Source of the DNA: a virus
Direction: 5' to 3' (one strand)
IMG/VR virus record: IMGVR_UViG_3300044971_004534
DNA length: 64,000 nucleotides
Positions 22,895-59,762 of this stretch are shown here, piece after piece. Within the stretch, counting starts at the first letter, position 1, and every line of letters begins with the position of its first letter. The position numbers were made by a program, and so were the translations under genes. The notes under the pieces were generated by a model. The model was not told the DNA's origin. It made no database searches and saw nothing but the letters and a program-made list of their open reading frames with translations.

Positions 22895-25800
22895 ATGACC
22901 TGGCCAGTTATTTCTTCAAGCAATCCTTTTGCTCAAACCATAAATCTCAGTTCTGATTCTGATTTACCACCTATAGCTAGATGGTCTAGCGTGCCCATGC
23001 AATGGGTTCACGATGGAGAATCGATAAGAGCATCTGTGGTAGCGTATCACTCTGCTGGTATACAAAGAGTTGATTTTATTTGCGACGGCGGAGAGTACGA
23101 GTCTGGTGGTCATATTATTAGCGTTATTAATCCTGTAGCGGACGCAGTTTCAAAGCAGGATGAGTATGCCTGTAGTATTGATATAGATAGTACTTGGCCT
23201 GAAGGAATTCATACAATCAGGGCTATTGTTTATTCTAATGCTGGCACTCAAAGAGTATTGCAGGGAACTTGGTTGCCAAAGTTTTCGTCCTCTTCAGACG
23301 AATATTCTTATGCATCGAATGGAGAGGTTGATTTTACTTTTATAGTTAATCGTGGATCTTATGACGGCATTACAGTTTATGTAGATTCTGTAAATGGCAA
23401 TGACGCTAATTCGGGTACTTTTGGCTCACCATTAAAAAATCTATGGAGCGCAATAGTTAAGATTCATGCAAGCCATACAGAAGGCTCTATTAGAGAAGAC
23501 GTTATTGTCTGTAAGGCTGGAGAGTATAGAATAAGCCCACTTGTCCAAAGCGATTATCCCGGCGGAGTGATTTCAGATGCACCATTGGGGTCTGGAAGAA
23601 TTGGTTGGTTGAAAATAAAGTCGATGGATGGTGTGAATAAAAAAGATGTGGTTATCACCAACCGTTCCATTAATTTTGGCAGTGTTGGATCTCCTTCAAG
23701 TTATACAGTACTTTCTAATTCTTTAGAATCTCGTTTTACTAATTTTGAAAATTTAACTTTAGAAAACTTTTATGATAGCAGTACAAATGTATCTGGAGAA
23801 AAGAATTTTATTATTAAAACTGGCGCGAATGTAGATAGCAGAGGAGTGTGGTTGAATGGCTGCAGTATTAGGGGAAAAGTAGGGGTATCTGTTGATACGT
23901 TAGTGTCTAGTTTAAATAGTCAGTCAAATATTTCTTTTAAAGCTTATCCTGGCATATCAGAGAATATAGTTGGGTTTGCTACTAATTGTTCAGTCAATGG
24001 CTTGTATAGAGGTTTTAAAGATTTTGCTTTAGTGAAGCAGTGTGGAATAGGCAGTGTCGTAGAGTACGCAGCAAAAAACTGTGCTGCTTTGATGTCGTGC
24101 AACATATCCAGTGTCGGGAATGTGGGAGCTGTATCTGGATCTGCAGTGATCAGCTTTACTGAAGATTCAGGAATAAAGAAAAATATTATTATATCTAAAA
24201 ATAATATTAATAAATCTGCTATTGCTCATTTTAGTTTTGATGCTAATGGAGCAACATTCAGTCCTAATGATTTTTACGAGAGTATAGCAATAGTCTCAAA
24301 TTATTTTACTAGATTTTCTGGTGGTCCAGGTAAGTCTTATATTTTTAATGGGATCAAGCAAGCATTTATTGTTCACAATAGTATGCTTGACAGTCTATCC
24401 TTTCATGATACACCAAATGGAGCGTGGACTAACCCAGCCAATGTGAGCAGCATATATTGCAGATACAATTTATTAAATGGAATTATAGTTGATTCAACAT
24501 CTGGCTCAACAGCTTCATTAGGTGCTGGTTTATCAAAGTTAAATACTTCTTTAACAAATTCAAATTCTGATATATCTGCAAATATATTTTTATTACCATC
24601 GGTTTCTTCTAACCCGCTTTTCTTATCTCTAATAGTAGCTAATCAGAACACGCAGGTAAATACAAGTTCACACAAAGTTGTCAAAAATTATTCTGAAGGA
24701 AATCTTGCTCTTTTGTGTGTTTCTCTTAATGGGGTTTCTAATCCAGCAAAAGGTTTAGAAAGTTCATCTATTTTGAATACTGACATTTTGGGTAATTCAT
24801 ATGAGAATTCTAAGGGAGATTGTGGTGCGAGACAGGATTGCACTGAAGAGGTTTCTCCAGATATTATAGAGACAACTGAAATTAAAACAGTTCCTATATC
24901 TGGATTTCCAATACTTGGAGCTAATCAAGTAGACTTCTTTCAGTCTTCTACTTTTGCTTTACAGTATCAGTTTAGCGCTTTTGATATGGTTCTTTGGTAT
25001 GATCAAAACGTAAGAAATTTTCCTGCTTCTGCTACAGAGACGGGATCACCTTACTACCCAGGTGGCTCTTATCAAGAGTGTCAGATTTGCACTTTGGGCC
25101 CAGGATTGTGCACAAGTACAGTTGATGGTGGCGCAAATTGGTTTAAGAGATGGAGTCTGCCTTCGAGTTTGACATTTGAGCTTTCTACTCTTCCTGCTTG
25201 TGACAGTGGGAATACTTCTAAGATAGCTGGTACTCGTGCTGCGTTTAGAGAGTATTTCGATGTTGATGGTATGGTGCGCGGAATGTCAAGGTATAACCCA
25301 GACTGGGCATTAGTATTTCTGCATGGTGGGTCAGAGCCATTGTGGTGGGATACTCAGATACCTGGAATGAGCCAATGGGCTTTGCTTAAAGATGATGGAG
25401 AAGAAAGCACTTCTATGGGTCTTGGAATGGACGTAGTGCAGGCCTACAAAGATGCATCAAATAAGTATAAGCAAAAATTGATGGCTTACTTTTTTCCATT
25501 TGCTTGGATTGAGTTAGATTCTTCTGTTTATCCTTATGCATTAGATATTTTTGGAAATCATGTTACTGAGGGCAGACATGGACCAACTATAAGCTATAGA
25601 TCTTCTTTTAATGATGCATTTGTTGACCTGCTATGCCAGATACATGTTGAGATGGCTCGCAAGTGTTTTGATATAGAAACAGGCTATGGATTCGCTGGGT
25701 GTATGTGGGATGCAGCTCCGATGTTGTATACACTTGACTTTAGTCCTGACGCAATTGCTGCATCTGGAATAGATGCTACTAAAGATTTTCCTTGGCCACT

Positions 25801-28800
25801 TAATAATCCGGCAGATGGTTCCAACACTGCTTTATTGACAGCATTTGTAAGTGAAGTTACCGCTAATGCGAATCCAGGTTCTCTCTTATTAAGAGATCCA
25901 AATCCCGCTAGAGGCTGGACACAGGATATTAAGGATAAGTTGCAGGCATATGTATATGCATTAAATAATCTTCAACCAGACATCATGCGCCGCATAAGAG
26001 AAGCTGTAGATGAAGCTGGATATTCTGATTTCGTGATCCTTCATGCTGTTGCAAACTCTCAGCCATCTTTTGAGTGGCCAGGCAATGCTGAAGATGTTGC
26101 ACTATATTCTTCTGGTGTCAAAACAGAAATAGGTGCAGAAGGCTATCTGAGAAGAAGGCAGGCTTCAAACGTTACTAGCAAAACTGGATCTAAAGCAGCT
26201 CCAGATTTATGGCTTGCCATGCATACAGATTTTTTAATGTCTCAGTCTAGAACTGGAAAAAGAGCTTATGGATGGCAAATTGGTCAATGGATTATACCAA
26301 ATTGGATAAGTGGTAGTGAATGTGACGCTACATTTAAATCTTGCTTAACAACTTTTGACGGTAATTATTCCAATAAAGTAGAGTTTAAAAACAATCTTCT
26401 TCCAAGAGATATAGCAGTACGTGGTTGGTTGGAAAACCAATCTTTATTAGCTCTGGCTTCTCACGTTACCCCAGAGTTTATGTATGGGTTTTATGATTGG
26501 TATAAATATGATCAAGTAGAAGACTTGTCAGGATTTGAGAATGCTGCAGACGCCTTTGCAATACAGCATCTTCCTTATATGAGAAGAATTTCTTCCATAC
26601 TTGGATCTGTTAGTGATGCAAACGTCAAGTTGCACAATAGATCAAATGTTGCATGGTGTGTTATATTGCATCGTCCAGAGCTGGGCTGGAAGACAAGTTT
26701 GTATATTAATACTGGTGTTAATGAATCATTCTCTGGCCCTGGTTTTGCTTACTACTGGCCAATATTTGGAGCTGTACAGACATGTGTTGAGCATGGCATT
26801 GCTCACGTTATTGCTCAGGATGATGCTTTTACTGCAAGTAATTTTGCAAATTCTGGAGTAGTTATAGTTCCTTTTGACAAAAATCTTTTGTCTGCTTCTG
26901 TGAGAAATGAGCTTGAATTATTTGATGGACTTGTCATATATGTGCAAGACGCCATAGCAAACGGTGAGCTTGATGATAATTTCCATAATACCCAGTCAGT
27001 TGGAAATAAAACAAGAGCTCAAGTTTCTAGAGATCAGTTGTGGAATTTGATGCAAAGAACTAATAAAAATTTAGTATTGCAAACAGAGTTTTCTTATCCT
27101 CAAAATTTGCCTGAATCTCCAATTCCGATGGTTGGTTATGAAATAGGAACTGATGTTTATGAAAATCAATCTCTACTTGTGACCTTAGTTGCAGATGCTG
27201 CTTGGCACGATGGTAGAAAATATGGATTCTTTGGTCTTACCGTCAATAACTATCCAGTAAATGGAGTTTGTGGTAGACAAAATTTGTTACTTGCATCTCC
27301 TAACGATCCAGAAAATGATCTTGTTAATTCTTTAAATTTAAGGAAAATATTAGATGTATGTAGTTGCACTTATACTGACACATTTACTACAATTAATACT
27401 ATAGCTGGTAGAGATTGCTATTATGTTAATCATTCTGCTGCTGGAGTAATACCGGTAGAGGTATTGCCAGCAAGAGGCAAGCTTAACTATTATGCTGGAT
27501 ATCCTCCAGTTTGGAATAGTAATAGAAGCGCAAGAATAACATTCAATGCTTCTCAAAAGCCTTATAGACTTAGACAGTTATTGTTAAATAAAGATGATGG
27601 AGTTTTTGGTCCAGTTGACATGTTTGTTAACAATGACTTTGTTGATGTTGTTCCGTTTGAAATTGGATCTTTTGTACAGGTTCAATTATCAGATGCTGAC
27701 ATTATCCCGCATGTTGGAATGTGTGTATCTGAAGATTTACTAAAAGTCGCCAGTGTTGATGATCTAATTTCTTTACTAAGTTTTTTAAGAGATCAGCCAG
27801 CATCATTCAACGTTATAAAAGTTAGATTGTCATGCGGTTCTTCAATGGTCGAAGGCGACGTAGTTGCTAATACTTTATTCACAGAAATCATTTCACATGC
27901 ACAGTCTAATCAAAATGCATATTCTTGGCTTGTAAATAATGTTGGGGAAATAGGAAGTCCTACTATTCACACTTTATTTGGCCTACTTAGATCTACGTCA
28001 CAAAATCCATGTGGAGATGGATCTTTCTCTGTTGGTGGAGTTTTAATACAAAATGAAGGTATCTGCAAAATTGCATCAGCGTTAACTTCACTATCTACTA
28101 TGTATAATCGTTTAACTAGCGATAGTCAATGTTACTGTGAATCTTCAGATACCTATAAGCTATACTCATCTAAGGTAAATTTAGACAGATCTTTAAGTCC
28201 TTCCGATGGCTCTAGCTGGGCTGCGACGGTAGAAGATGAAATCTCTGCCATATCAGACGCTAGCGATGGTTTAATGATGTACATTAGGCCTGTAAGTGAT
28301 ATTTCAAGTGATTACTACAATATTGACGTGAATGGTTTGCCAATTATAGATGGAATTGTTAAATATGTTTCTGATGTTAATGACGCAATACTTTCACATA
28401 CTGCTAACGTACAAGATGCTTCAGATTATTATGCAGGAGTCGTATTAGACTTTGAGCATCTTTTTAATATAAATAGCCCTCTTGCTACCTTGCACGCAGA
28501 CGCATGTTCTTACCCATTCTTTATAAATTCTCAGGGCTCAGATTCTTTTGACAATGTCAGGAGATCAATTGCTTATGTAAATGGCAGATTAATATCTGTG
28601 CTAAGTGCTATTAAATTTATAAATCCAAAACTACAGGTTTCTATAAGGGGTCTCGGAAGAATAGATGATGCTTTTGGCTTTGAGGAAAGTAAAGACTCTA
28701 GTGCAGTACATACGGCAGCAAATTGCACTCCAAAAGCACGTGAAGAGTTGTATAAAAGAGTATCAGAATTTTATGGTCCACTTTTAGAAGCTTGTGATTT

Positions 28801-40800: not shown

Positions 40801-43800
40801 ATTTAGTCAGCAAGAAATTGATGGAATAGTTTATGGTCACAACGATGTATGGTCAGATGGAAATCCACTGTATCAAATTTCATGCAACAGTATACAATTT
40901 ACACAAAACGGAAAGCTTGGTATATTTGGAGCTTTGTGGAGTTGGGAATTTGGAGCATATAATATAGCTCAAGTTTATAATTTAGAAACAAAACAAAATG
41001 ATCATATTACTCCAAAATCAGTCCTGCTTTTAAGAAGAGATGATCCTCAAAATGCTTGGATACCAGAGTGGGCATGGTCTAGTCAAGATACAGTACAGGA
41101 CAGAATGCTGTGTCATTCATTGTCTGATAGTAATGATCATATATTCATATTTGGATTATGGTACATCTATAAAATAGATATAGTAACTAAAGAAATAATT
41201 AGTAAGAAAAAAATATGGGACATATTCACTCCAGGTATGTTCTCTGATGATCCATGCCCAATAGGGTATGCAAAATACTTACCACAATCTTCAAAATGGG
41301 TTATCATGCTTCTCGACACTTATAATTATCCAGTGTTGAATGGATATCTTGGAGTAGTTACTGATTCTGACTTTAATGTTTTACATTATATAGAAGATCC
41401 TTCAAATGATGGTCAAGGATCTTTGATGTATCCTAATGTTCATAAGCAAGTAGACATTAGTAGTGATGAAAAAAGATTAGTTATTTCTTCTTATTCTTAC
41501 AGCGGTGAAAAAACTTTTGTCAATTTAATTAATTTAGCTAGTGGGGGAAGTAGTCTGTGGACATTAGAATTAAATTCAGAAACAGAAGACGACTTTGTTG
41601 CAAGATTTGTAAAGTTTACTCAAGATAACAGCTATATTGTAGTTGGACTAGTAAGGAATATAAAAATATTAAACTTGGCAGGAGCTCCTATTGATATTAA
41701 TGATTCAGAAAATTCATATACAAGCTTTGCATCTACAATTGATGATGTTTCTACGGGTGTTTTGAATAACGATATTATAGTTTGCACTCGTTCTACTGGA
41801 GGTTGGTGTATATCTGGATGGGAGTCTGTCGCTGAATTTGCGCCAACTGAAAATCAAATACAAAAATTCACCTTTGACAATGGTGGCGTAAGAAAATTTG
41901 CTTTTTCTCCTGATGGTCTAAGGTGTAGTTATTGGGGATGGTCTAATTATTATAGGGTTTCAAATTCACCAAGACTTGAAGACTTTAGCTTTGTTGATAC
42001 TAATTTTACTATCAAAGATAGATCTAATTTGGCTATAGATATATTTGACTATATAGGCGATGCTGTTCCAGTGTCTATAGCAACCGGTGTAGAAAATGCT
42101 GCTGTTGTGCTTTCTAACGGTTCTTTGTTCTGCTGGGGAACTAATCGTCAAAACGAAACTGATTATCCAGATGTTTCAAATGCAAAAAGTGTTCATTATG
42201 TTTCTGAGCATTGGTCAAACACTCTTTTTGACAGTGAGGGGCGGCCTCTTAGAGGAAGAGGTTACATAGTATTACTTAAAGATGGAACAATAAAACTATG
42301 GGGTAGTTGGGTATTCTTGGAGGGATATGCAGACCTGTTGCAAATAAACGATGCTATAAAAATATCTTGCAGCTCTTGGTATGTCACTGTGTTGCATTCT
42401 AATGGCGTTGCATCTTTGCATGGCAGAACTGACGTTGTGCCTCCAACAGAGCCTTTCCCTGAAAATGAGAGCAATATTATAGACATTGCTTCTACTAGAT
42501 TGGGTGGAATGTTGCTTAAAGCAAGCGGAGACGTAATTACTTGGGGATATGAATCTGTAGATAGTAATCCAGCTTCATGGACATATGGATCTGGATTGAC
42601 TCACAGGCCGAGTGCAGCTATAGGTAAAGTTGCCAAGTTAGGCACCTCTTATTTTGGAGCATATCCTGTTATTAAGCAAGATGGAAGAATCGCATGTTGG
42701 GGCTGGGATAGCTTTAGATTATGCGCTGGAGGTGATGATGCTAATGGAGACGGAATTCCTGATTATGTTTGCAATGGTATAGTTAGAGAAGGTTACAATT
42801 ACAATAACACTCCTCCATTAAGAAGTAGTTTCATAGATATTTCTGCTGGAAGAATGCATACTTCTTTCGTATTAAATGACAAAACTGCTTATTTTACGGA
42901 TTGGTCTTCGGATAAAATTGATAATTATGTTGACTATGGACAATTTGGTCCATTACAGGACTGGTATCCTGCTGCTAATTCATTCGCACAGTCTGATATG
43001 CCATCTCCTTTGAATAAAAATATAAAGAGTGTTTCTAGTGGATTTGGTTACACATATTTTATAAGAGAAGACAATTCTATATTCTCTATTGGAGCAGATC
43101 CTGGCATGGGATTGGTAAATGTTTTATGGGCCTGGCTATTTGAGTGGGATGTTGATTTTGAAATGCCACTTTTTGCTCCCATAACGTTCCAGGCAATAAC
43201 TCCTAGTGATCTCACCCATGCTAAGAAAATAGCTGCCGGAGATTTCCATACAGCAGCAATTACTATGGAAAATACGGTTAGGTGCTGGGGTTATAATAAA
43301 TTTGGTCAATGTGATGTGCCTGCAGAAGCTGTAGACATAGTGGATATTGCAGTTGGAAGGTATCATACCGTTGCTGTTAAGGCAGATGGTTCAGTGATTT
43401 GCTGGGGAAGAGACAATAAGGGGCAATGTGCTGTTCCCTCAAGCATTCCACCAATTAAAAAGGTTGCGGCATGCATGAGTCACAATGTGGCGTTGACAAC
43501 TAGTGGCAACTTGGTTTATTGGGGCAGTGGTGATCATTATGATGCATTAAGTTTATTTAATGGCAATCCGTTCCCCTCTGAGTCTCCTAATCAGCGTGGA
43601 GATTATGCATCCAGTGGAAATTACACTGATGTATCTACAGGAGTTTTCCATACGATAGCTCTTAAGAACGATGGAACAGTTGCAGTGTGGGGTAAGGCAA
43701 ATTATAATACCGGTATTCCAGGTTTTGACAATAATTTTGGTCAATTTGATTATCCAGAGCTTAATGGTAAAAAGGTAGTAAAAATTTCTGCTGGACATTA

Positions 43801-46291
43801 CCATAATGTAATATTGGTGAAAAATCAAAATATTGTTACTGAACAAAGAAGTGCTAATTTAGCTGACGGCATATTAAAGAAAGTAGAATTTAATTTAACC
43901 AACTCAAGTGGCATTAGTGAATTGTACTTAAATAACTCTTCTGGTCAATCTGTAATCGTTGTTCCAGAAAGTCTTGGGCCAACGGTAAATAAGCCAATAT
44001 CTGGAATAGACTATTTTGGTAACAACCATTTGTTCAATGACTATTCTGACAAGTCGTTTAATTGGACTATTAATTCTCTTGCAAATGAACAGAATATAAG
44101 TTTTAAGGTAGACTATTTTGATTACTCAAATTCTTATCTTGTTTCTGATGACAATGAGATTAGTCTATATTATGATGAGGATGCTTCTCAGTGGAACGTT
44201 AATGTAGAAAAGATTGGTATGCACGCTTTTGTTGTCATGGAAATGCAGCAAATGATGGTGTCTTCAAGTTCAAGTTCTTCTGAATCTTCTTCCAGTAGTT
44301 CCAGTTCCAGTAGTTCCAGTTCCAGTAGTTCCAGTTCCAGTAGTTCCAGTTCCAGTAGTTCCAGTTCCAGTAGTTCCAGTTCCAGTAGTTCCAGTTCTAG
44401 TAGTTCCAGTTCCAGTAGTTCTGTTTGTACTAGAATATGGAGTGGTCCATATGGCTGCCCTGACATCAATGGTGATGGTTTTGTTGACTTTAGAGACTTG
44501 GATGCTATGATATCTCTATCTGGTACAGTTAATCCAAGCTCTAGGCAATCTGTGTCTGCAGACTTAAATGGGGACGGCTCTATAAATGTTGCAGACCAAA
44601 TATTGTTACTTAATTTTGGATATGGCTGTTGTGAATGCCCAAATTTTGTATGGCCCATATCAAGTAGTTCAACCAGTGCTGGATCTAGTAGTTCATCTTC
44701 TTTTGAAGATGAAGATATAGATTTTACTTCTTCTTCAAGTAGTTCAAGACCTATTGGTTCTTCTTCTAGTTCTTCTTCTAGTTCTTCTTCAGAAGAATCA
44801 AGCTCATCAAGCTCAAATGAATTTGATCAAGCTGCTAATTTCTCTCAAATATCTACTCAAAGGTCTTCTAGTATAGACGCAGAATTTGGAATTCAGTTCT
44901 ACAACACTGGATTTGGAGGAGCAGTTGCTGATAGTTTAAATATTAATTTTGCTCAATTAAGTCCAGTTTCAATAGCTAGGGGAGACTCTTATTCAGGAAT
45001 AGTCACTTTTTACAATGGTACAAGAATTGGTAAATACGATACTGTATCTCTAGAGGTTAAAAATGAGTCTGTAAAGTATGCAGGCTCGGTGCCTCACACG
45101 GTTCTAGAAGATTCATTTGAAGGAGTGAATACCGGCTTGGCTGCAGGCCTCGGTCAAGTGCAAAATATTAATATTGTTTCTCAAAGAAGTAAAATGTTAA
45201 GTATGTATGTTGAGGATCTAAGATATGAGACAAATTATTTTGGTTACAATATGTATTTTGCAAAACAAAAAGAATCTGTAGAAAGAAATGGATCTTTCGT
45301 CACCAACTTTGATGCGATTACGGAGTCAAATATTGATCATGTATCTTCTGATATTTACTACAAGAAAGTTATATCTAGTTCTACAATTATTAAATCAATA
45401 GGATTATTGCAGCAAGTAGTTCTTTTAGAAGATAATAAAGTTATGGTAATTGGTAATAAGAATATTGGAATTCTAGATGGTGATCTTAATTTTGAATTTA
45501 TAAACTTTAGTTTTGAAGACGGTGAAAATGTATTAAGTGCAAATATATTTGACGATGGTATAGTGGTATGCACATCAAATAGATTTGTAGTATTTGATAT
45601 TTCTATTAAGTTTATGTATTCAGTTGGATATCCAGGTAGTATTGGCACTCCAATATGTGGTTATGGGAACAATAGCGAACTTGTATTAAGCACCAGTAAT
45701 GGTATTTACTACAAACTTTTTGATGCCCCAAGTTTTGTGAGAACATATATACCATCAATATCTGGATCAAACAATCCAGATGGTGTATATAAATTTATAG
45801 ATAATAATAATGCGACCATAGGAATAGGTAAAAATATATATTGGACAAATAATAATCAATTATTTTCTAAAGTTTCTACGGAGACTGTTAATTACAATAT
45901 TCGTTCAGTTGCCAAATTCTTTAATCGGTACGTTTTTGCTACTGACAAAGGCGTATTTGTTTCAGCACTTAACATGTTGGGTTCAAATAGCGTGCAGGCT
46001 TCTCTAGCTTCTCAGTCTATATTGCCAAATAGTCCCATATCTTTTATAGATATTGCGGTAGAACAGAACCAGGTGGGTGCAAATCTTGTTAGTGCTACCG
46101 TGTATGCAATACGTTCTGACGGCGTATTATTTATATCTGAAGATCCAGCTAATTATTTTGACACTATTGAAACCCCAATTAAAAAGCCTATTATGTTACT
46201 TGTTAAGGGGTCTGATGTTTTAGTGTTCTCTAATAATAATGTATATTCGAAAAATACTAATGTGATAAAGACTTTAACTAGGAGTTTGTAA
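22895..46291 (+). CDS. 7798-aa mosaic megaprotein with carbohydrate-active-like modules, dockerin-like modules, propellers and poly-Ser linkers
   Basis: This is a single uninterrupted frame of 7798 sense codons. Alternative-frame and antisense ORFs inside it are all under 160 codons. Multiple recognisable domain motifs are listed as sub-features. The stop overlaps the next start (TAATG 46289-46293). Confidence 0.9.
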   Translation: MTWPVISSSNPFAQTINLSSDSDLPPIARWSSVPMQWVHDGESIRASVVAYHSAGIQRVDFICDGGEYESGGHIISVINPVADAVSKQDEYACSIDIDSTWPEGIHTIRAIVYSNAGTQRVLQGTWLPKFSSSSDEYSYASNGEVDFTFIVNRGSYDGITVYVDSVNGNDANSGTFGSPLKNLWSAIVKIHASHTEGSIREDVIVCKAGEYRISPLVQSDYPGGVISDAPLGSGRIGWLKIKSMDGVNKKDVVITNRSINFGSVGSPSSYTVLSNSLESRFTNFENLTLENFYDSSTNVSGEKNFIIKTGANVDSRGVWLNGCSIRGKVGVSVDTLVSSLNSQSNISFKAYPGISENIVGFATNCSVNGLYRGFKDFALVKQCGIGSVVEYAAKNCAALMSCNISSVGNVGAVSGSAVISFTEDSGIKKNIIISKNNINKSAIAHFSFDANGATFSPNDFYESIAIVSNYFTRFSGGPGKSYIFNGIKQAFIVHNSMLDSLSFHDTPNGAWTNPANVSSIYCRYNLLNGIIVDSTSGSTASLGAGLSKLNTSLTNSNSDISANIFLLPSVSSNPLFLSLIVANQNTQVNTSSHKVVKNYSEGNLALLCVSLNGVSNPAKGLESSSILNTDILGNSYENSKGDCGARQDCTEEVSPDIIETTEIKTVPISGFPILGANQVDFFQSSTFALQYQFSAFDMVLWYDQNVRNFPASATETGSPYYPGGSYQECQICTLGPGLCTSTVDGGANWFKRWSLPSSLTFELSTLPACDSGNTSKIAGTRAAFREYFDVDGMVRGMSRYNPDWALVFLHGGSEPLWWDTQIPGMSQWALLKDDGEESTSMGLGMDVVQAYKDASNKYKQKLMAYFFPFAWIELDSSVYPYALDIFGNHVTEGRHGPTISYRSSFNDAFVDLLCQIHVEMARKCFDIETGYGFAGCMWDAAPMLYTLDFSPDAIAASGIDATKDFPWPLNNPADGSNTALLTAFVSEVTANANPGSLLLRDPNPARGWTQDIKDKLQAYVYALNNLQPDIMRRIREAVDEAGYSDFVILHAVANSQPSFEWPGNAEDVALYSSGVKTEIGAEGYLRRRQASNVTSKTGSKAAPDLWLAMHTDFLMSQSRTGKRAYGWQIGQWIIPNWISGSECDATFKSCLTTFDGNYSNKVEFKNNLLPRDIAVRGWLENQSLLALASHVTPEFMYGFYDWYKYDQVEDLSGFENAADAFAIQHLPYMRRISSILGSVSDANVKLHNRSNVAWCVILHRPELGWKTSLYINTGVNESFSGPGFAYYWPIFGAVQTCVEHGIAHVIAQDDAFTASNFANSGVVIVPFDKNLLSASVRNELELFDGLVIYVQDAIANGELDDNFHNTQSVGNKTRAQVSRDQLWNLMQRTNKNLVLQTEFSYPQNLPESPIPMVGYEIGTDVYENQSLLVTLVADAAWHDGRKYGFFGLTVNNYPVNGVCGRQNLLLASPNDPENDLVNSLNLRKILDVCSCTYTDTFTTINTIAGRDCYYVNHSAAGVIPVEVLPARGKLNYYAGYPPVWNSNRSARITFNASQKPYRLRQLLLNKDDGVFGPVDMFVNNDFVDVVPFEIGSFVQVQLSDADIIPHVGMCVSEDLLKVASVDDLISLLSFLRDQPASFNVIKVRLSCGSSMVEGDVVANTLFTEIISHAQSNQNAYSWLVNNVGEIGSPTIHTLFGLLRSTSQNPCGDGSFSVGGVLIQNEGICKIASALTSLSTMYNRLTSDSQCYCESSDTYKLYSSKVNLDRSLSPSDGSSWAATVEDEISAISDASDGLMMYIRPVSDISSDYYNIDVNGLPIIDGIVKYVSDVNDAILSHTANVQDASDYYAGVVLDFEHLFNINSPLATLHADACSYPFFINSQGSDSFDNVRRSIAYVNGRLISVLSAIKFINPKLQVSIRGLGRIDDAFGFEESKDSSAVHTAANCTPKAREELYKRVSEFYGPLLEACDFVYLWNANESEDADLSGIIPSIAKANLRLSSLSKHFEYRQANQPLIFVEINGTYLSSNGNSPSDYCEVSSAEILAESLDPFIRNSIDGFVYYAGQENIEKSIFENCPTSISNSAIAAAVSSCWDVAISNCSSESGVISAFESSILNHIELISSHIGGSTTESYIPFIIMMGESNAGGLAKNSEALASELGTRDEVKILNNYTLNFETLNISATGNNILDHRNPNGIPDVTDSIWNSNGGPPHGWELGLANAVRDGKFATDFVYLLKTGHGGSKIGDNAIDGDWDTSDTYWNLFVNRFNVAKSAIIADGYTPQVYLWYEIGINDCISNVNPSQWKTKLVQKFINVRSAVGANIPIFIVLLPDVDMSGGSIDNISDFNNAILEICAENNLIYWVKSEDAPLKSGDIYHWNYYGMKNLADKMSYLTADVIGQGINYIANIAVAPNQPDYNNFSPVIGFIPYSNSSDPALEFVYPSFEVRGRLSGNAINDEPGSGPYPSSDGSPSQAISFFNSKGIPAARRSVFYFNIGSSTFDGVFSDPIYNRTYEQLYNSSDSCIDANGDIVRQDTLDPREAQNPTYRGSLAFVSPWTLGANTRLEQFTRQWVGEYKNLNGKIYGFISDNESLNPTGFWAVPSLRYDNNNTSRIPHFQKIINDPRSLLTNESAGYAFEIGKNLKDQLRLNDFYNINDFDSVDFRTIDDPQFRGGYLHWDYVMYRHAIWYAQKHWYDAISDYFPNHNSTHVWTFYIPKEDHFNDMNGHITYRDMLCGNTANPLLFGECGGIGINSEIDPNNKTRTRFLSQYNPGGTPFGSRAWNSLLLQQQEIKAIRRHPENQKFIPWIGSRNLILNNAFGGGSDVNHDSLWAEGVYHLALHNPEAIYMFYPRNPDGAGDTAWYIENGLVSYQLLNSILKEVNERTGNKIVSLVESSIQRINLDSKVLITGCKTIKNKHLWRITADVLHVNSLNIDGSVFAVQSSSPAIWYETGTNVAAINILSYDPVTKTLNLVSSSAEAPLCKSCMSAFISPAITASEFNVDKNSFPQNIFSMIEISDRVLSRDTYDPNGACAANASAIVSCNKYAFYKNDTSDYNIDGGINYINDVVLGASAENAFNYTGNIGFEFSKIKQLFIDYLSVPSGLAVMGSELNKAIRQMFETVVVSKNFAPKAKIGIVNSPVVPFSMPNFDWSTASESERYNIIDKCASLIEDTISEVDFIALDMRQQFEIQNNVQYASFLSYAISVVKHFKQWLSSKGLTKKIFAVVSKESYQDFTEVPNDKYTTLIASVSEYVDGFVYKSLTAEKWIQLFDGDANNDQAAFDSLSSILNRNVGSADTATYNAIQSYNLSNLTTLKSTVSFNCRSYNVSNSSGDVISFRATRGPSYPEWMSSARLMMKFSLSAENIKSCAALAVPHMPAASSLSDEDTIVCVFVNTQYVSNSSLFTISGASCNAVRKISTARSVFLNALQLQQFVNYAVSYAPDVLVFDAHQFDEPLWYSTATPIGTWNILTSHPGYGLGPGLDIIDTYVAAASTVGSKCVLDINPCSFVTLPASQYPYSLNCFGGIIKENFDNGINISIRSFLNQNFVDLTYQYHDELFSKGVDGVMWNREVLSDYGDFSANVIEKFARYLGYESANELEFKERFPFPAVCGSSLGNYLYSAAGFTGTCDSSANISVEDLVFKIPNFGTLYTQEIKDTLIEYFAFCHNLANANILYIQNKIDYSYGTSGLKVIIPHVGSDIIYKWKSSLSSEILNSASVITVNSGIEKQARSRRIKNANTSNNTQEIQRPGAATVENFGLDLLSSSDGKKIIIRKLPNIFKYADTSVASQWNNFDNVNATNIVEDGIVREDGIKGHLASCVFDYIRAGHAVMLDMPNWSNYQEDGETVNYSYVNNDPPRNDMPFVLNVVDINSLMSTLISTSARNNKHAWVGVHYPNRARKYVHVSDSVASFGQEFYSDSNLELSRYGYSGSMSIGQFNWPIFGVYESCIYSGISCAVINDTSLENGDFSGLSVIVIPHKKLLSSMQKDKLDQFNGSVIYLEDLYGQGLQNLWHSSLNTISTNNPDYVTLYNLLINKINAVAGNPPVKVSVNIDNSINTDSGNYILKPFSVFEVSESPESTKIVVCVANDRNWADVRNNIDENGIYGQIERNNDLLNISSANPVFNTIYSGDDFYVNNSYPVLGQFNYYAGDPPAGFGKTFSVRLSFKNNISLLSVTQISCNYSDNNVSGTSLSWSSGASGQSVISNLISDFAWFEIEFSYITPSSSSSSSSSSSSSSSIDDGCITWTGPGCLDLDGDGVIKGSDLAALFAAYSVYDPKADFNGDGVVNSLDLGILQVNWGRCVTCPNWNPSSSSSSSSSSSSSSSSSSSSSSSSSSSSSSSSSSSSSSSSSSSECVTWNGPGCPDMNVDGKVDGVDLQICLSAQSEYNPVADLDGNGIVNGNDLGILMTYWGQCVICPNWPPSSSSSSSSVSSSSSSSSSSSASSSSSSSSSSSSSTIELFSILQARPSVGPKQPSWWSTASVHFQSFNPYATIKQIYEANMDESAPAITEPSLLEVYNEQSSGCGVRPYYANSPTGYPPGYEFTYRSDYAWMRSNGNSFKERFENALNAWFNPEQRALVAHRYRPDIVMIDLHNGDEPFIYNSAVPNAKTSLMIDDVSGLSDYDMVRPFIRKSHELGMKCTAYFKPHFAFLNESVFPAALTANGQKIRAEVNLTQSCTIQRSIFNENFKNFLKNCMIEIVTPESGGGLECDGIYWDASLLEELLDFSSDAIDVYAKYLGYSGYDDPEYVLWAQSNFPFPKTSGWIVSQEDGYIGGGSRPSYKNVYPDSNFEGLGYYNLINNNVDLNENHIENLKTFVSVIKNRYYEILDEISQAVSVASNGNAVFFPAELPSWPDQPHASVSSEVARYTHAVKTEFAVEPRGYSGLRRKSELTQAVLSNEILYCDIQRPSMSLSMTLNQKLDFFSGNKTAIQWNPQRVWISDLPIGSSGSANTLTTFNSDQFYVYPTGYPLFFERGLGREDSIHGYLRAVYQIMIKNGNIFDFNTWYGAGWVGDQDQFIQDATLINNDGYFNNPDMGVSPGNTYAFWRKAIYHARKMKEEIIKEGLIFNIREAYSWAAIHVPVRGRIGIDAPVSWGQDYVIGQNKTINRTVTTNENNQNWGQFWWPILGAMQAFEDRFIPYSLLLDEQLYNGELNGISVIIIPHREWLTVTDQIRLLQFETAGGKVVYMDNAFSDSGGGSSDPRRKGRWYSYEDQNSESIKFINYVKLIAGEPTFSGSVTSYEYDDGTYRHKQAGWFKLSEQDSDGKLLVGVHLLNDMSWMDMRKNASMLSGIDPRFNQLDPVTVPVKGLMDQDLFGWGEDWRNWYNENFDPTNPPHASILPYPIPNPDPSANVKQYFYDPHAENMWGKPLIGYGQYWSANLRLNLPSDFRINKVYKFYVDQENDPNDAGITKKAFNYRAAAESTVMSLSNMPYLPRLNSINTSNTANVINYGAIGDGVSDDTQAFIDAIASGFSAIYIPAGKYRITSSLNISDSVNIIGDIGSSILMSDIQGGNALFNIVPEGSAVTYSYEGQIFSGQKEFQLSSTIGLSVGQKLIFKIGHESASSLSFEYAYDIEIQSINGNIITSASGAPFASDKLIHKIDVYAMSPHDLVIEGIDITSYDENSSYYAFNLLNCINVNLRNINIFNSSFHGIRINKSSKISIERCVFDNIGAGSGAMPSATAITVTYAYDLNLYRNYVKNSLSGLLNLFKSRKINGSYLWVNNCQDACSFAYIRDILEFEVTNVYINNKDLIFVTDLGVSSPYSTSNVYLLQKPFEFNVSNHSGILRIENRVFNGVTSGVITIPVNPPIVSSSSGNESLDVIAWGAGSDPSKYQRANSWNDLYVTVPRSYAHKDQSYIPYIDNPEKVEIQEGNTFVLDANGKMYSSGSTKFNMRPLPASITDNTVIDFSSSLYQLGLIISDNGTGDLSVLVHGRKQYNLCRTLKFNNNSNEIFYVNANGKIGRVNVFSQQEIDGIVYGHNDVWSDGNPLYQISCNSIQFTQNGKLGIFGALWSWEFGAYNIAQVYNLETKQNDHITPKSVLLLRRDDPQNAWIPEWAWSSQDTVQDRMLCHSLSDSNDHIFIFGLWYIYKIDIVTKEIISKKKIWDIFTPGMFSDDPCPIGYAKYLPQSSKWVIMLLDTYNYPVLNGYLGVVTDSDFNVLHYIEDPSNDGQGSLMYPNVHKQVDISSDEKRLVISSYSYSGEKTFVNLINLASGGSSLWTLELNSETEDDFVARFVKFTQDNSYIVVGLVRNIKILNLAGAPIDINDSENSYTSFASTIDDVSTGVLNNDIIVCTRSTGGWCISGWESVAEFAPTENQIQKFTFDNGGVRKFAFSPDGLRCSYWGWSNYYRVSNSPRLEDFSFVDTNFTIKDRSNLAIDIFDYIGDAVPVSIATGVENAAVVLSNGSLFCWGTNRQNETDYPDVSNAKSVHYVSEHWSNTLFDSEGRPLRGRGYIVLLKDGTIKLWGSWVFLEGYADLLQINDAIKISCSSWYVTVLHSNGVASLHGRTDVVPPTEPFPENESNIIDIASTRLGGMLLKASGDVITWGYESVDSNPASWTYGSGLTHRPSAAIGKVAKLGTSYFGAYPVIKQDGRIACWGWDSFRLCAGGDDANGDGIPDYVCNGIVREGYNYNNTPPLRSSFIDISAGRMHTSFVLNDKTAYFTDWSSDKIDNYVDYGQFGPLQDWYPAANSFAQSDMPSPLNKNIKSVSSGFGYTYFIREDNSIFSIGADPGMGLVNVLWAWLFEWDVDFEMPLFAPITFQAITPSDLTHAKKIAAGDFHTAAITMENTVRCWGYNKFGQCDVPAEAVDIVDIAVGRYHTVAVKADGSVICWGRDNKGQCAVPSSIPPIKKVAACMSHNVALTTSGNLVYWGSGDHYDALSLFNGNPFPSESPNQRGDYASSGNYTDVSTGVFHTIALKNDGTVAVWGKANYNTGIPGFDNNFGQFDYPELNGKKVVKISAGHYHNVILVKNQNIVTEQRSANLADGILKKVEFNLTNSSGISELYLNNSSGQSVIVVPESLGPTVNKPISGIDYFGNNHLFNDYSDKSFNWTINSLANEQNISFKVDYFDYSNSYLVSDDNEISLYYDEDASQWNVNVEKIGMHAFVVMEMQQMMVSSSSSSSESSSSSSSSSSSSSSSSSSSSSSSSSSSSSSSSSSSSSSSSSSSSSSVCTRIWSGPYGCPDINGDGFVDFRDLDAMISLSGTVNPSSRQSVSADLNGDGSINVADQILLLNFGYGCCECPNFVWPISSSSTSAGSSSSSSFEDEDIDFTSSSSSSRPIGSSSSSSSSSSSEESSSSSSNEFDQAANFSQISTQRSSSIDAEFGIQFYNTGFGGAVADSLNINFAQLSPVSIARGDSYSGIVTFYNGTRIGKYDTVSLEVKNESVKYAGSVPHTVLEDSFEGVNTGLAAGLGQVQNINIVSQRSKMLSMYVEDLRYETNYFGYNMYFAKQKESVERNGSFVTNFDAITESNIDHVSSDIYYKKVISSSTIIKSIGLLQQVVLLEDNKVMVIGNKNIGILDGDLNFEFINFSFEDGENVLSANIFDDGIVVCTSNRFVVFDISIKFMYSVGYPGSIGTPICGYGNNSELVLSTSNGIYYKLFDAPSFVRTYIPSISGSNNPDGVYKFIDNNNATIGIGKNIYWTNNNQLFSKVSTETVNYNIRSVAKFFNRYVFATDKGVFVSALNMLGSNSVQASLASQSILPNSPISFIDIAVEQNQVGANLVSATVYAIRSDGVLFISEDPANYFDTIETPIKKPIMLLVKGSDVLVFSNNNVYSKNTNVIKTLTRSL
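23365..24560 (+). other. N-terminal right-handed parallel beta-helix-like segment
   Basis: The entry motif ITVYVDSVNGNDANSGTFGSPLKNLWSAIVKI resembles the DUF1565/pectin-lyase-fold N-terminus (yVd..Gsd.n.Gt...Pl.ti..A). It is followed by roughly 25-residue repeats rich in N/G/S/V. Confidence 0.5.
24900..27700 (+). other. GH42-like three-domain module A (TIM-barrel-like, GH42M-like and beta-sandwich parts)
   Basis: The segment AWCVILHRPELGW...YYWPIFGAVQTCVEHGIAHVIAQDD...SGVVIVPFDKNLLSASVRNELELFDGLVIYVQD parallels the beta-galactosidase trimerisation (GH42M) pattern. That pattern is vAilfd..., gi.vdvv, then yklvvaPalyllseelaekLeeyVenGG.lv. The upstream part (GFAGCMWDAAP...) is paralogous to modules B and C. 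Confidence 0.5.
29285..30075 (+). other. SGNH / SASA-type carbohydrate esterase domain
   Basis: The SGNH blocks appear in the correct order. They are block I FIIMMGESNAGG (about 29305), block II KTGHGGSKIG, block III YEIGINDC (about 29750) and block V SGDIYHWN (about 30000, DxxH). Confidence 0.65.
33165..35560 (+). other. GH42-like three-domain module B
   Basis: It is paralogous to modules A and C. The matches are PDVLVFDAHQFDEPLWY, GVDGVMWNREVLSDYGDFSANVIEKFARYLGY and HAWVGVHYP...NWPIFGVYESCIYSGISCAVIND...LSVIVIPHKKLLSSMQKDKLDQFNGSVIYLED. Confidence 0.5.
35561..35605 (+). repeat. Poly-Ser linker 1 (15 Ser codons)
   Basis: There is an in-frame run of mixed AGT/TCA/TCT/AGC/TCG codons between module B and dockerin-like module 1. 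Confidence 0.95.
35606..35821 (+). other. Dockerin-like module 1 (two Ca-loop repeats, Cys-bracketed)
   Basis: The sequence is C-ITW-TGPG-C-LDLDGDGVIKGSD...DFNGDGVVNSLDLGILQVNWGR-C-VT-C-PNW. It has two 12-residue DxDGDGxxxxxD EF-hand-like loops, as in type I dockerins. Confidence 0.7.
35822..35950 (+). repeat. Poly-Ser linker 2 (43 Ser codons) built from perfect tandem repeats
   Basis: AGTTCTAGTAGTTCCAGC (18 nt) occurs 3 times, followed by AGTTCCAGTTCCAGC (15 nt) 4 times, all in frame. Confidence 0.95.
35951..36157 (+). other. Dockerin-like module 2
   Basis: The sequence is C-VTW-NGPG-C-PDMNVDGKVDGVD...DLDGNGIVNGNDLGILMTYWGQ-C-VI-C-PNW, with the same Cys bracket as module 1. Confidence 0.7.
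36158..36259 (+). repeat. Poly-Ser linker 3 (Ser run with single V and A interruptions)
   Basis: The in-frame translation is SSSSSSSSVSSSSSSSSSSSASSSSSSSSSSSSS. Confidence 0.95.
36260..39170 (+). other. GH42-like three-domain module C
   Basis: The matches to modules A and B are PDIVMIDLHNGDEPFIY, ECDGIYWDASLLEELLDFSSDAIDVYAKYLGY and YSWAAIHVP...FWWPILGAMQAFEDRFIPYSLLLDE...ISVIIIPHREWLTVTDQIRLLQFETAGGKVVYMDN. Confidence 0.5.
39235..40330 (+). other. Pectate-lyase-superfamily (tailspike/depolymerase-type) beta-helix
   Basis: NVINYGAIGDGVSDDTQAFIDAIASGFSAIYIPAGKYRITSSLNI is the classic Pectate_lyase_3 N-terminal signature (GAkGDGvtDDt.Aiq.Ai...PaG.Y). It is followed by repeated N/I/S-rich coils (NLLNCINVNLRNINIFNSSFHGIRINKSSKISIERCVF). 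Confidence 0.75.
40800..41960 (+). other. WD40/PD40-like beta-propeller region
   Basis: The blade-like motifs are SSDEKRLVISSYSYSGEKTFVNLINLASG, FTQDNSYIVVGLVRNIKILNLAG and FAFSPDGLRCSYWGW. Confidence 0.35.
42050..43830 (+). other. RCC1-like repeat propeller(s), about 11-12 blades
   Basis: The repeats include KIAAGDFHTAAITMENTVRCWGYNKFGQCDVP, IAVGRYHTVAVKADGSVICWGRDNKGQCAVP, VSTGVFHTIALKNDGTVAVWGKANY and AAVVLSNGSLFCWGTNRQNE. These match the canonical RCC1 pattern (G..H..al..dG.v..WG.n..GQ.g). Confidence 0.8.
44261..44422 (+). repeat. Poly-Ser linker 4 (54 codons, one Glu) with a 15-nt tandem repeat
   Basis: AGTAGTTCCAGTTCC is repeated about 8 times in frame, with one TCT variant. Confidence 0.95.
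44423..44660 (+). other. Dockerin-like module 3
   Basis: The sequence is C-TRIWSGPYG-C-PDINGDGFVDFRD...DLNGDGSINVADQILLLNFGYG-C-CE-C-PNF, with the same four-Cys bracket as modules 1 and 2. Confidence 0.65.
44661..44818 (+). repeat. Ser/acidic-rich linker 5
   Basis: The in-frame translation is SSSSTSAGSSSSSSFEDEDIDFTSSSSSSRPIGSSSSSSSSSSSEESSSSSSNE. Confidence 0.9.
45350..46288 (+). other. C-terminal propeller-like repeats of the megaprotein
   Basis: The blade motifs VLSTSNGIYYKLFD, IGIGKNIYWTNNNQLF, VFATDKGVFVSALN, YAIRSDGVLFISEDP and LVFSNNNVYSKNTN are of the same style as in ORF 2410..7956. Confidence 0.4.
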
Positions 46292-59700: not shown

Positions 59701-59762
59701 ACGGAACATCAGTAAAAAGCGAAATAGCCGAGTGGAGAAGGCCAACAGGTCCGCCGCTATAA
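47778..59762 (+). CDS. 3994-aa mosaic structural/adhesin-like protein (vWA-like, LamG, FN3-like, Kelch, PPC, discoidin-like)
   Basis: This is an uninterrupted 3994-codon frame, and embedded alternative ORFs are all under 90 codons. Domain motifs are listed as sub-features. Confidence 0.9.
   Translation: [3994 protein letters not shown]
49050..49215 (+). other. vWA-like N-terminal half with a MIDAS DxSxS motif
   Basis: [47 protein letters not shown] matches beta1 (DxSxS), alpha1 and beta2 of vWA domains. The match then breaks off into an FN3-like segment ([21 protein letters not shown]). Confidence 0.5.
49740..50235 (+). other. LamG / concanavalin-A-like domain
   Basis: The matching segment is [15 protein letters not shown]...LSLWIYLF...[26 protein letters not shown]...[22 protein letters not shown]. 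Confidence 0.7.
54130..55390 (+). other. Kelch-repeat propeller (about 6 blades)
   Basis: The blade cores are [55 protein letters not shown] and [11 protein letters not shown]. Intervening W residues (RWTTA, TWLSL, SWSVS) are present. Confidence 0.75.
56095..56450 (+). other. PPC (bacterial pre-peptidase C-terminal)-like domain
   Basis: The matching segment is [27 protein letters not shown]...[10 protein letters not shown]...[10 protein letters not shown]. This has the typical D.D.y.F....G.y.i.v ... G.Y.l pattern. Confidence 0.6.
56466..56583 (+). repeat. Poly-Ser linker (two Ser runs split by NQGGNG)
   Basis: These are in-frame AGC/TCT/AGT tandem-like repeats (AGCTCTAGTAGC units) translating as [39 protein letters not shown]. 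Confidence 0.95.
56928..56975 (+). repeat. Poly-Ser linker (16 Ser) from a 12-nt tandem repeat
   Basis: AGTTCTAGCTCA occurs 3 times, followed by AGTTCTAGCAGT, all in frame. Confidence 0.95.
57290..57640 (+). other. vWA-like C-terminal half
   Basis: The segment is [20 protein letters not shown]...[15 protein letters not shown]...VKVNSFNIS...[14 protein letters not shown]. It resembles the alpha3 to beta6 part of vWA domains (..T.l..al..A, iiLlTDG..n, v.v..igig, la..tGG.y). Confidence 0.4.
57690..57910 (+). other. Discoidin/F5-8 type C-like (galactose-binding-like) segment
   Basis: [18 protein letters not shown]...[12 protein letters not shown] resembles the v.yS.DG..W......aRYvRi ending of discoidin domains. 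Confidence 0.4.

Follow-up and report, generated by a model that had tools for sequence, protein, structure and literature searches.

A single open reading frame (ORF) of 7,798 codons in the IMG/VR virus record IMGVR_UViG_3300044971_004534 is a real coding gene of an uncultivated huge phage, and its product combines several glycan-processing modules in one polypeptide chain. The record was analyzed as one stretch of 64,000 nucleotides (nt), referred to here as the window. The gene (the megagene) encodes a protein of 858 kDa with a pI of 4.8 (the megaprotein), in which three modules with the fold of glycoside hydrolase family 42 (GH42), a SASA esterase and a pectate-lyase-like beta-helix were recognized, in agreement with an original prediction made from the letters of the window and the translations of its ORFs. 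Its set of sugar-cleaving, sugar-binding and dockerin modules has no parallel in cultured phages. We lean toward the view that the megaprotein is a virion-borne fiber that binds and dismantles a complex host surface polysaccharide (capsule, exopolysaccharide or sheath).

The megagene is an intact coding gene

The megagene begins with ATG, and as an in-frame TAA lies immediately 5' of this codon, its start is unambiguous. Its translation contains one stop only, at the end. At the base composition of the window, the stop probability per codon is 0.075 (about one stop per 13 codons), and the chance of an open run of 7,798 codons is P ~1e-265. The longest open run in the remaining five frames across the megagene region is 212 codons, so that the limit of 160 codons originally given for the other frames was too low; the longest antisense ORF starting with ATG has 156 amino acids (aa). 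This antisense ORF (window 44188-44658, minus strand) overlies the longest serine linker and is open because the AGT/TCC serine repeat reads open on the opposite strand as well; it is not a gene. The megagene takes up 36.6% of the window, close to the early estimate of about 37%.

Five contigs from different samples and sources (NCBI GCA_043537505.1; JGI 3300042945, 3300036398 and 3300044611; Logan SRR11637992) are 100% identical to the window in DNA sequence over the part that each carries, and the three long contigs among them cover window positions 36291-57781. Two of the identical contigs have the megagene called at 7,798 aa, and another contig, of 240 kb, has it called at 7,788 aa; a 161-kb contig ends within the gene, which truncates its call to 5,306 aa. 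The adjoining 496-aa protein is residue-identical on 12 contigs. The five serine linkers of the megaprotein (16, 44, 35, 54 and 12 residues) use mixed serine codons and are encoded by short tandem arrays, mostly of 15-nt units, the longest of which measures 162 nt. The 10-codon difference in the 7,788-aa variant would equal two such units.

In comparison with a relative that is 70% identical at the amino acid level (described below), the megagene is collinear through every linker, with hardly any insertions or deletions and 53-85% identity per domain. The ratio of non-synonymous to synonymous substitution rates (dN/dS, NG86) is 0.05-0.23 in each domain where dS could be estimated, which indicates that the entire length of the megagene is under purifying selection; the value for the whole megagene is 0.115, with dS saturated. 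An assembly artefact or chimera, in which collapsed or mis-joined serine repeats would have produced the long frame, is therefore extremely improbable and practically refuted already. Tandem arrays of this kind could slip, a length variant is known, and the contig of a distant relative (L014) carries a 1-nt frameshift, but the sequences of the five assemblies, which come from different samples, agree base for base over the parts they carry, the relative is collinear across all linkers, every repeat unit is a multiple of three bases, and purifying selection acts on both flanks of every linker. The chance estimate, the identical assemblies and the purifying selection together bear out the original prediction of a single, genuinely coding ORF.

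The module map of the megaprotein is as follows.

22895..46291, plus strand: whole ORF (megagene), ATG start, 7,798 codons plus stop (ORF listing)
22895..25111, plus strand: N-terminal ~740 aa, no family assigned (Big_7 at best, E 0.045)
25112..27694, plus strand: module A, aa 740-1600, GH42-type three-domain fold (hhalign, AF2, Foldseek)
27692..29194, plus strand: conserved segment aa 1600-2100, no family match; accompanies module A in the related proteins P0001, P0002 and P0011
29282..30094, plus strand: SASA/SGNH carbohydrate esterase domain (Pfam SASA, GESN and DxxH motifs)
30152..33034, plus strand: two segments without family match, aa 2420-2960 and aa 2960-3380 (no Pfam or PDB match)
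33032..35539, plus strand: module B, aa 3380-4215, same fold family as A (self-comparison)
35561..36259, plus strand: serine linker, dockerin 1 (aa 4241-4309), serine linker, dockerin 2 (aa 4353-4421), serine linker
36263..39214, plus strand: module C, aa 4457-5440, third GH42-fold module (self-comparison)
39236..40324, plus strand: pectate-lyase-like right-handed beta-helix, starting YGAIGDGxxDDT (Pfam Pect-lyase_RHGA_epim)
40322..41884, plus strand: aa 5810-6330, no family match (no Pfam or PDB match)
42062..43864, plus strand: RCC1-type beta-propeller (WD40_RLD, RCC1_2)
44261..44854, plus strand: serine linker (54 aa), dockerin 3 (aa 7177-7256), serine-rich linker (Pfam Dockerin_1, self-BLAST)
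44855..46288, plus strand: C-terminal domain aa 7321-7798, no family match (Pfam and PDB searches)

Three modules share a GH42-type fold

Self-comparison of the megaprotein showed that modules A, B and C are mutually paralogous, with 24-31% identity over 850-980 aa. None of the three matches a Pfam family at E<=1, the GH42 and GHL6 models included, and none has a sequence match in the PDB. An exhaustive HMMER search of 1.84 billion cluster representatives with a profile of the three paralogs returned 31 proteins only, some of which are large proteins with one copy of the module (P0001 with 3,146 aa, P0002 with 4,412 aa, P0004 and P0005); other matches among the 31 were weak and bear Pfam GHL6 (PF14871). 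A profile built from the modules and their homologs aligned to a profile of the GHL6 proteins with an hhalign probability of 99.8% (E 1e-28, 572 columns), and the GHL6 profile in turn matches the GH151 alpha-L-fucosidase ALfuk2 (PDB 6TVK, E 4.9e-10). ALfuk2 combines a TIM barrel with a Rossmann-fold domain and a beta-sandwich; D154 is its nucleophile and E235 its acid/base (PMC10154630). The Asp of the GHL6 "fyfD" motif aligns with residue 183 of the 6TVK chain, which would correspond to D154 given a 29-residue tag (689 versus 660 residues).

An AlphaFold2 (AF2) model of module A from the three paralogs only reached a predicted local distance difference test score (pLDDT) of 30 and was discarded. 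When the alignment was widened to 30 sequences (paralogs, homologs and GHL6 proteins), the pLDDT rose to 73.4, with a predicted template modeling score (pTM) of 0.82. A Foldseek search of the PDB with this second model gave full-length matches (770-900 columns, E 2e-11 to 1e-9, probability 1.0) to a GH42 arabinopyranosidase, GH42 beta-galactosidases, a GH164 beta-mannosidase, an alpha-agarase and a beta-1,2-glucosyltransferase, at 8-14% identity; the top entries named are 5xb7, 5dfa and 6lvw (GH42) and 6t7g (GH164). These full-length alignments indicate that module A shares the three-domain architecture of TIM barrel, Rossmann-like domain and beta-sandwich. The earlier description of the modules as GH42-like is thus correct for fold and architecture; by sequence they are not GH42 and form a divergent offshoot nearest to GHL6/GH151.

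The likeness to GH42, GH164 and GH151 (GHL6) enzymes extends over the full module length, from the TIM barrel through the Rossmann-like oligomerization domain to the beta-sandwich, and GHL6/GH151 enzymes also share the Asp at the end of beta4 that aligns with the GH151 nucleophile D154. GH42, GH164 and GH151 enzymes differ in size, with ~650-700 aa compared to modules of 850-980 aa with large insertions, and unlike the GH42, GH164 and GH151 enzymes, the modules sit inside a giant phage protein.

The candidate nucleophile Asp is kept in module A (D939, nt 25709-25711), in module C (D4716) and in all homologs, as is the candidate acid/base Glu of a K-[TS]-E motif (E1078, nt 26126-26128, in A; E4875 in C). 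In the model of module A, D939 lies at the end of strand 192-199 (pLDDT 94), which is beta4 by our count, and the conserved Glu lies at the end of strand 335-340, beta6 by the same count. Module B has neither of the two candidate catalytic residues; their positions are taken by N3567 and N3721 in the megaprotein and by S and N in the 70% relative, which repeats the pattern of A and C with the candidate catalytic residues and B without them. From these residues we infer that modules A and C are active glycosidases, with a specificity that is not inferable at this distance; module B is probably a non-catalytic copy with a binding or scaffolding role.

Module A had no match in the BFVD viral structure library at E<=0.001, the best being a Goslar tail protein at E 2.8e-3. 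A tblastn search with module A and the following segment found no match among 50,697 phage records. GTDB genomes, searched by a pattern scan, yielded no relative.

Esterase, beta-helix, propeller and segments with no family match

Scans of the megaprotein by whole halves with Pfam and PHROG gave no match in the first 4,000 aa, and tiling added SASA only. The SASA match (PF03629, aa 2208-2387) has an E-value of 2.1e-8 and 34.5 bits against a cut-off of 24.8, and the domain carries a GESN motif with Ser2141 and a DxxH motif (DIYH) with His2374. The beta-helix matches Pect-lyase_RHGA_epim (PF12708) at E 1e-10 to 5.5e-12, with 46.4 bits against a cut-off of 27, and its tblastn matches are phage "pectin lyase" genes. 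The RCC1 propeller matches WD40_RLD (E 3.7e-50, 171.7 bits versus 150) and RCC1_2 (E 3.2e-39, 132 bits versus 22), and its RCC1-like match to phage RCC1 proteins spans ~aa 6465-6990. All three domains had been named in the original prediction, and each lies above its Pfam threshold, with the Ser and His motifs of the SGNH/SASA esterase present.

The unmatched stretches of the megaprotein are aa 1-740, 1600-2130, 2400-3380, 5810-6390, 6990-7122 and 7257-7798, and PDB sequence searches with eight tiles or profiles of the megaprotein gave no significant match. Several folds that had been read into these stretches by eye were not confirmed. The Ig-like N-terminus reached no more than the Big_7 match listed above; the first beta-helix came down to a cap-like motif, YVDSVNGNDANSGTFGSPLKNL, and a match to 6kqs at E 0.75; and the two supposedly paralogous TIM-like segments aligned with a profile-profile hhalign probability of 1.2%, which leaves the TIM-like calls unconfirmed as well. 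Neither the WD40-like reading of aa 5810-6330, where there is no Pfam or PDB match, nor the C-terminal propeller, where blade-like repeats are visible by eye, showed significant blade periodicity. Kinship among the unassigned segments, including that of aa 1600-2100 with aa 2960-3380, was rejected by an all-against-all hhalign comparison.

The unmatched segments are still conserved in the relative and constrained. The N-terminal region is 70-81% identical, with a dN/dS of 0.10 over aa 1-660. The segment at aa 2420-2960, also found at the C-terminus of P0002, is highly constrained (82% identity, dN/dS 0.07), and the adjacent aa 2960-3380 is the most divergent segment of the megaprotein (53% identity). 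The dN/dS of aa 5810-6330 is 0.22. The C-terminal domain (aa 7321-7798) is 48% identical to the homologous part of the more distant relative L014.

Three dockerins lie between poly-serine linkers

For the ORF as a whole, Dockerin_1 (PF00404) was detected at E 7.6e-13 with 48.9 bits against a cut-off of 22.9, in two stretches. The stretch reported by Pfam is dockerin 3 (aa 7190-7238), and dockerins 1 and 2 were recognized through their self-BLAST similarity to it (41-42% identity, E 2e-10 to 1e-8). In all three dockerins both F-hand Ca2+ loops (D-x-[DN]-x-[DN]-G-x5-D) are intact, and each dockerin is bracketed by conserved Cys pairs (CxxxWxGPxGCP ... WGxCxxCPN). The Ca2+ loops and Cys flanks are kept in the dockerins of the 70% relative, and a 43% relative has dockerins with intact Ca2+ loops too. 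Few parts of the megagene are as well conserved as dockerin 3 (85% identity, dN 0.088). The originally proposed dockerins and serine-rich linkers were therefore found where they had been placed, as three canonical type-I dockerins between poly-serine linkers.

The "cellulosome-style assembly" that had been proposed along with them would need a cohesin partner and is unsupported: searches of the 64-kb window revealed no cohesin, either among its ORFs at E<=0.01 or in the tiled neighboring giants at E<=0.5. A tblastn search with a dockerin gave no match among cultured phages. Like cellulosomal type-I dockerin enzymes, the megaprotein has duplicated F-hand Ca2+ loops and serine-rich linkers beside carbohydrate-active modules. 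Cellulosomal enzymes, however, carry a C-terminal dockerin, whereas the megaprotein has three internal, Cys-bracketed dockerins per chain and lacks a signal peptide, and the window yielded no cohesin.

The dockerins could nevertheless serve in docking of the cellulosomal kind, plugging into cohesins on another phage protein or on a host scaffoldin, either to form a branched enzyme network on the virion or to use a surface scaffoldin of the host as receptor. The canonical score, the intact loops in three copies, the retention of loops and Cys flanks in the 70% relative, the presence of dockerins in the 43% relative and the strong conservation of dockerin 3 all speak for such docking. Nonetheless, we consider it doubtful, given the lack of a cohesin match in the window ORFs and tiled giants and the wide occurrence of dockerin-like modules outside cellulosomes. 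One example of the latter is provided by giant proteins of Omnitrophota, which are read as attachment proteins and carry dockerin-like modules (10.1101/2023.11.21.568195). Docking of this kind would be compatible with a fiber on the virion.

Relatives encode the same region in different ways

IMG/VR contains one related contig only, IMGVR_UViG_3300042326_002445 (L010, 223.6 kb), which is syntenic across the region. Its homolog of the megaprotein, the ~70% identical relative used above, is encoded by two genes of 5,596 and 2,587 aa. The first gene ends "...GGKVVYMDEIFNVT*" at a TGA codon and is followed by a 63-nt spacer with AAGGA, after which the second gene starts with "MNDPRNKGRWYSY". The split falls within module C, after its Rossmann-like domain and before its C-terminal beta domain, at megaprotein aa ~5194-5203 (nt ~38474), and not at the serine repeats. 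Two independent gene fragments, P0015 (100% identical to the relative) and P0007 (99.6%), reproduce the stop and the start, so the split is real in the lineage of the relative. P0004, P0005, P0013 and L014 are continuous at this site.

The original prediction had named close relatives with a split ORF, especially one split at the repeats, as evidence against a single polypeptide. A split relative does exist, with its break inside module C and not at the repeats, so that this objection applies in part. The single polypeptide is real in the window and is not conserved, since the 70% relative uses two genes; for the same reason, covalent linkage is not obligatory and is convenient rather than essential. 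The first gene of the relative also has an N-terminal extension of 383 aa, joined through a serine linker (L010 6638-7783), with no counterpart in the window. A trypsin-like reading of this extension, suggested by AHYVG and GDSGTP motifs seen by eye, was set aside as it has no Pfam match.

A third lineage is represented by contig L014 (Ga0247840_10008483), where an ORF of at least 3,045 aa is 43% identical to megaprotein aa 4457-7118 and has the same order of GH42-fold module, pectate-lyase helix, RCC1 propeller and dockerins. A 1-nt frameshift in an A run (AGGAAAG, 9100-9160) precedes its C-terminal domain and is ambiguous between sequencing error, mutation and slippage. The separate 409-aa C-terminal gene that results is due to this frameshift and not to a clean gene boundary, and it was not counted as gene fission. 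A homolog of the 496-aa neighbor of the megagene follows the C-terminal domain in L014 as well. P0001 and P0002 carry module A and the aa 1600-2100 segment at 43% identity in other arrangements, and in P0002 the RCC1 domain precedes the module. By these sequence comparisons, the megaprotein is a member of a small family of giant phage-type proteins whose modules have been shuffled, and the single chain of 7,798 aa is one of several coding solutions.

Genomic context

All window ORFs of at least 150 aa lie on the plus strand and are tightly packed, with the exception of the one antisense artefact. Upstream of the megagene is a run of giant genes encoding 1,708, 356, 2,807, 1,848, 213, 541, ~300, 1,249, 1,218, 860 and 565 aa, with essentially no Pfam or PHROG family match; a weak match to tail fiber J occurs in the run at E 0.0034. 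The three genes directly upstream (14887-18543, 18556-21138 and 21140-22837, plus strand; 1,218, 860 and 565 aa) are paralogs with a common N-terminal domain of ~200 aa and a pentapeptide-like middle region. A shared N-terminal domain is typical of alternative fibers or spikes on a common anchor. The "host-recognition operon" that had been proposed is therefore plausible with regard to these three paralogs, and is weakened by neighbors that are almost devoid of Pfam and PHROG matches.

The first ORF of the window (137-2410, plus strand) represents only the last 757 aa of the 2,807-aa gene, which starts before the window, and upstream of it, on contig L012, the 356-aa and 1,708-aa genes have no Pfam or PHROG match. 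Contig L006 (JGI 3300047094) is 99.55% identical to window 81-7225 with one gap of ~31 nt, because of which the 1,848-aa ORF (2410..7956) is called as two genes in this sample.

Directly downstream of the megagene, the conserved 496-aa gene is followed by a 3,994-aa ORF (window 47778-59762, plus strand) with VWA_2, Laminin_G_3 (a concanavalin A-like lectin) and a Kelch propeller. This protein is syntenic in the relative, at 77% identity, and appears to be a further giant of the adhesin type. Between its gene and the replication genes lie three genes for glycosyltransferases (GT2, GT1-type and GT2; window 59785-62352, plus strand); their products may O-glycosylate the poly-serine linkers, or could modify host glycans. 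After them comes a phrog_284 exonuclease (E 1e-44), whose identity to exonucleases of cultured phages is at most 27%. Beyond the window on the same contig (L007 11221-21221) are genes for a DEAD helicase, an IF3_N translation factor, DnaB, a DnaC-like loader and DnaG, and for the alpha subunit of DNA polymerase III, which is split in two genes.

The largest contig of the element measures 401 kb. Megablast of the region against deposited phage DNA gave no match, and tblastn against cultured phages matched the RCC1 and pectin-lyase pieces only. Four observations make an uncultivated huge phage without a close cultured relative the best reading of the element, namely the 401-kb contig, the relative in IMG/VR, the lack of a DNA match to deposited phages and the low identity of the exonuclease. 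The phage location given in the original prediction is supported by the relative on a viral contig, the phrog_284 exonuclease and the replication genes downstream.

Proposed function

As a virion-borne fiber, the megaprotein would be a product of the late or structural gene region with a "beads-on-a-string" build, assembled in the cytoplasm onto the particle. The SASA esterase would remove O-acetyl groups, and the beta-helix together with modules A and C would cleave glycosidic bonds, such that esterase, beta-helix and glycosidase modules may attack different bonds of one heteropolysaccharide. The RCC1 propeller, the putatively dead module B and the unassigned domains would hold the substrate, the serine stretches would act as flexible tethers, and the dockerins could be Ca2+-stabilized joints or plugs for a partner. 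Three parallel chains may form successive trimeric "beads"; GH42/GH164 enzymes and tailspike beta-helices are trimers, which makes a parallel-trimer architecture plausible.

A place on the virion is favored by the fiber-like paralogs and the weak match to tail fiber J upstream, the giant with VWA, LamG and Kelch domains downstream, the precedent of virion fiber proteins in the phage Goslar (see below), and the megaprotein itself, which by a Kyte-Doolittle scan lacks a signal peptide and any convincing transmembrane helix. Several observations weigh against such a fiber. The N-terminus of the megaprotein is without the anchor-like domain of the upstream paralogs, the PHROG search of the megaprotein returned no tail family and only phrog_25750 (function unassigned, E 1e-4), and no capsid, portal, sheath, tail or baseplate gene was recognized in or next to the window. 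About 3,500 residues, or 45% of the chain, matched nothing in Pfam, PHROG or the sequences of the PDB. As to enzymatic activity, residue conservation is the sole argument for catalysis, and the module alignment to 6TVK ends before E235, so that the acid/base Glu is not covered.

Two other accounts of the same protein were weighed. The megaprotein may be purely an adhesin, in which enzyme-like modules have been recruited as lectins and which, together with the VWA/LamG/Kelch giant, tethers the particle to host or non-host surfaces. The loss of both candidate catalytic residues in module B, which is still under purifying selection, fits this account, as do the propeller, VWA, LamG and Kelch domains, all of which are binding modules. 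However, the Asp and the Glu are present in modules A and C and in all homologs, GESN and DxxH are intact in the SASA domain, and the beta-helix family is typically catalytic in phage tailspikes, which makes an exclusively adhesive role unlikely. The megaprotein could also be an enzyme outside the virion, made late and freed at lysis or displayed on the infected cell, that digests matrix or particulate polysaccharide as an auxiliary "public good" and not as a device for adsorption. This is quite unlikely in our judgment, even though the GH42-fold/GHL6 relatives are bacterial proteins of saccharolytic type, poly-serine linkers with dockerins are generally typical of secreted polysaccharide degraders, and no tail family matches the megaprotein. 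Against it, the megaprotein has no signal peptide, its gene lies within a co-oriented run of giant ORFan genes with fiber-like paralogs and not among metabolic genes, and a soluble enzyme of 858 kDa would be a costly route to sugar release.

Relation to known systems and significance

A fiber of the kind favored here would have counterparts in phage tailspike and fiber depolymerases and deacetylases, with which the megaprotein shares the beta-helix, the SGNH esterase and the presence of several glycan activities in one phage. Examples are pectate-lyase-fold tailspikes, the SGNH esterase spike G7C gp63.1 and the branched multi-depolymerase fibers of the Klebsiella jumbo phages phiKp24 and PhiK64-1. 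Those of phiKp24 are hyperbranched. Such systems consist of many separate proteins of 500-1,300 aa on N-terminal adaptors, in contrast to one chain of 7,798 aa that adds GH42-fold modules, dockerins and poly-serine linkers and has no match to known anchor domains.

The jumbo phage Goslar has virion proteins that combine carbohydrate-binding, glycoside hydrolase and beta-helix or leucine-rich repeat domains for host recognition. This DUF7941 "fiber cloud" of Goslar (Chimalliviridae) resembles the megaprotein in consisting of multi-domain, glycan-active proteins, which in Goslar are described as virion proteins, a location that we infer for the megaprotein. The Goslar proteins are separate and are joined non-covalently, head to tail, by DUF7941, whereas the megaprotein shares no DUF7941; the two have no dockerin or serine linker in common, and the structural match at E 2.8e-3 is not significant.

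The dockerin-type giants of Omnitrophota are also metagenomic giant ORFs that mix dockerin/EF-hand repeats with glycan domains, and they are read as attaching to and degrading the surface of another cell (10.1101/2023.11.21.568195). They are cellular, membrane-anchored proteins of at least 30,000 aa with many dockerin/TSP3 repeats, compared to a viral, unanchored protein with three dockerins, and they carry a different enzyme set; the likeness, drawn from descriptions, is conceptual. In the literature covered, which was incomplete, no description of a dockerin-bearing phage structural protein or of GH42-fold phage modules was found, and searching by sample and assembly identifiers gave no paper either.

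If the megaprotein is borne on the virion, it would constitute a multi-specific, glycan-degrading adsorption organelle on one 858-kDa chain, with enzymes of several classes beside lectin-like modules and dockerins, instead of on many adaptor-borne spikes, a one-chain design for which we found no earlier description in the literature. The megaprotein brings a GH42-fold/GHL6-related module family into phage biology, and its ~3,500 conserved, family-less residues may harbor new folds for carbohydrate processing or binding. Together with its relatives, the megagene illustrates how genes for giant phage proteins fuse and split in nature, and it offers a concrete, testable case for cohesin-dockerin biology outside cellular cellulosomes. 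It is a rather improbable outcome that the dockerins are working cohesin plugs and thereby the first phage-encoded cellulosome-like system, but if they are, the phage would possess a self-assembling enzyme network on its virion, or would use the cohesins of a host scaffoldin as its receptor, and a self-assembling network would explain why relatives cut the chain into separate genes.

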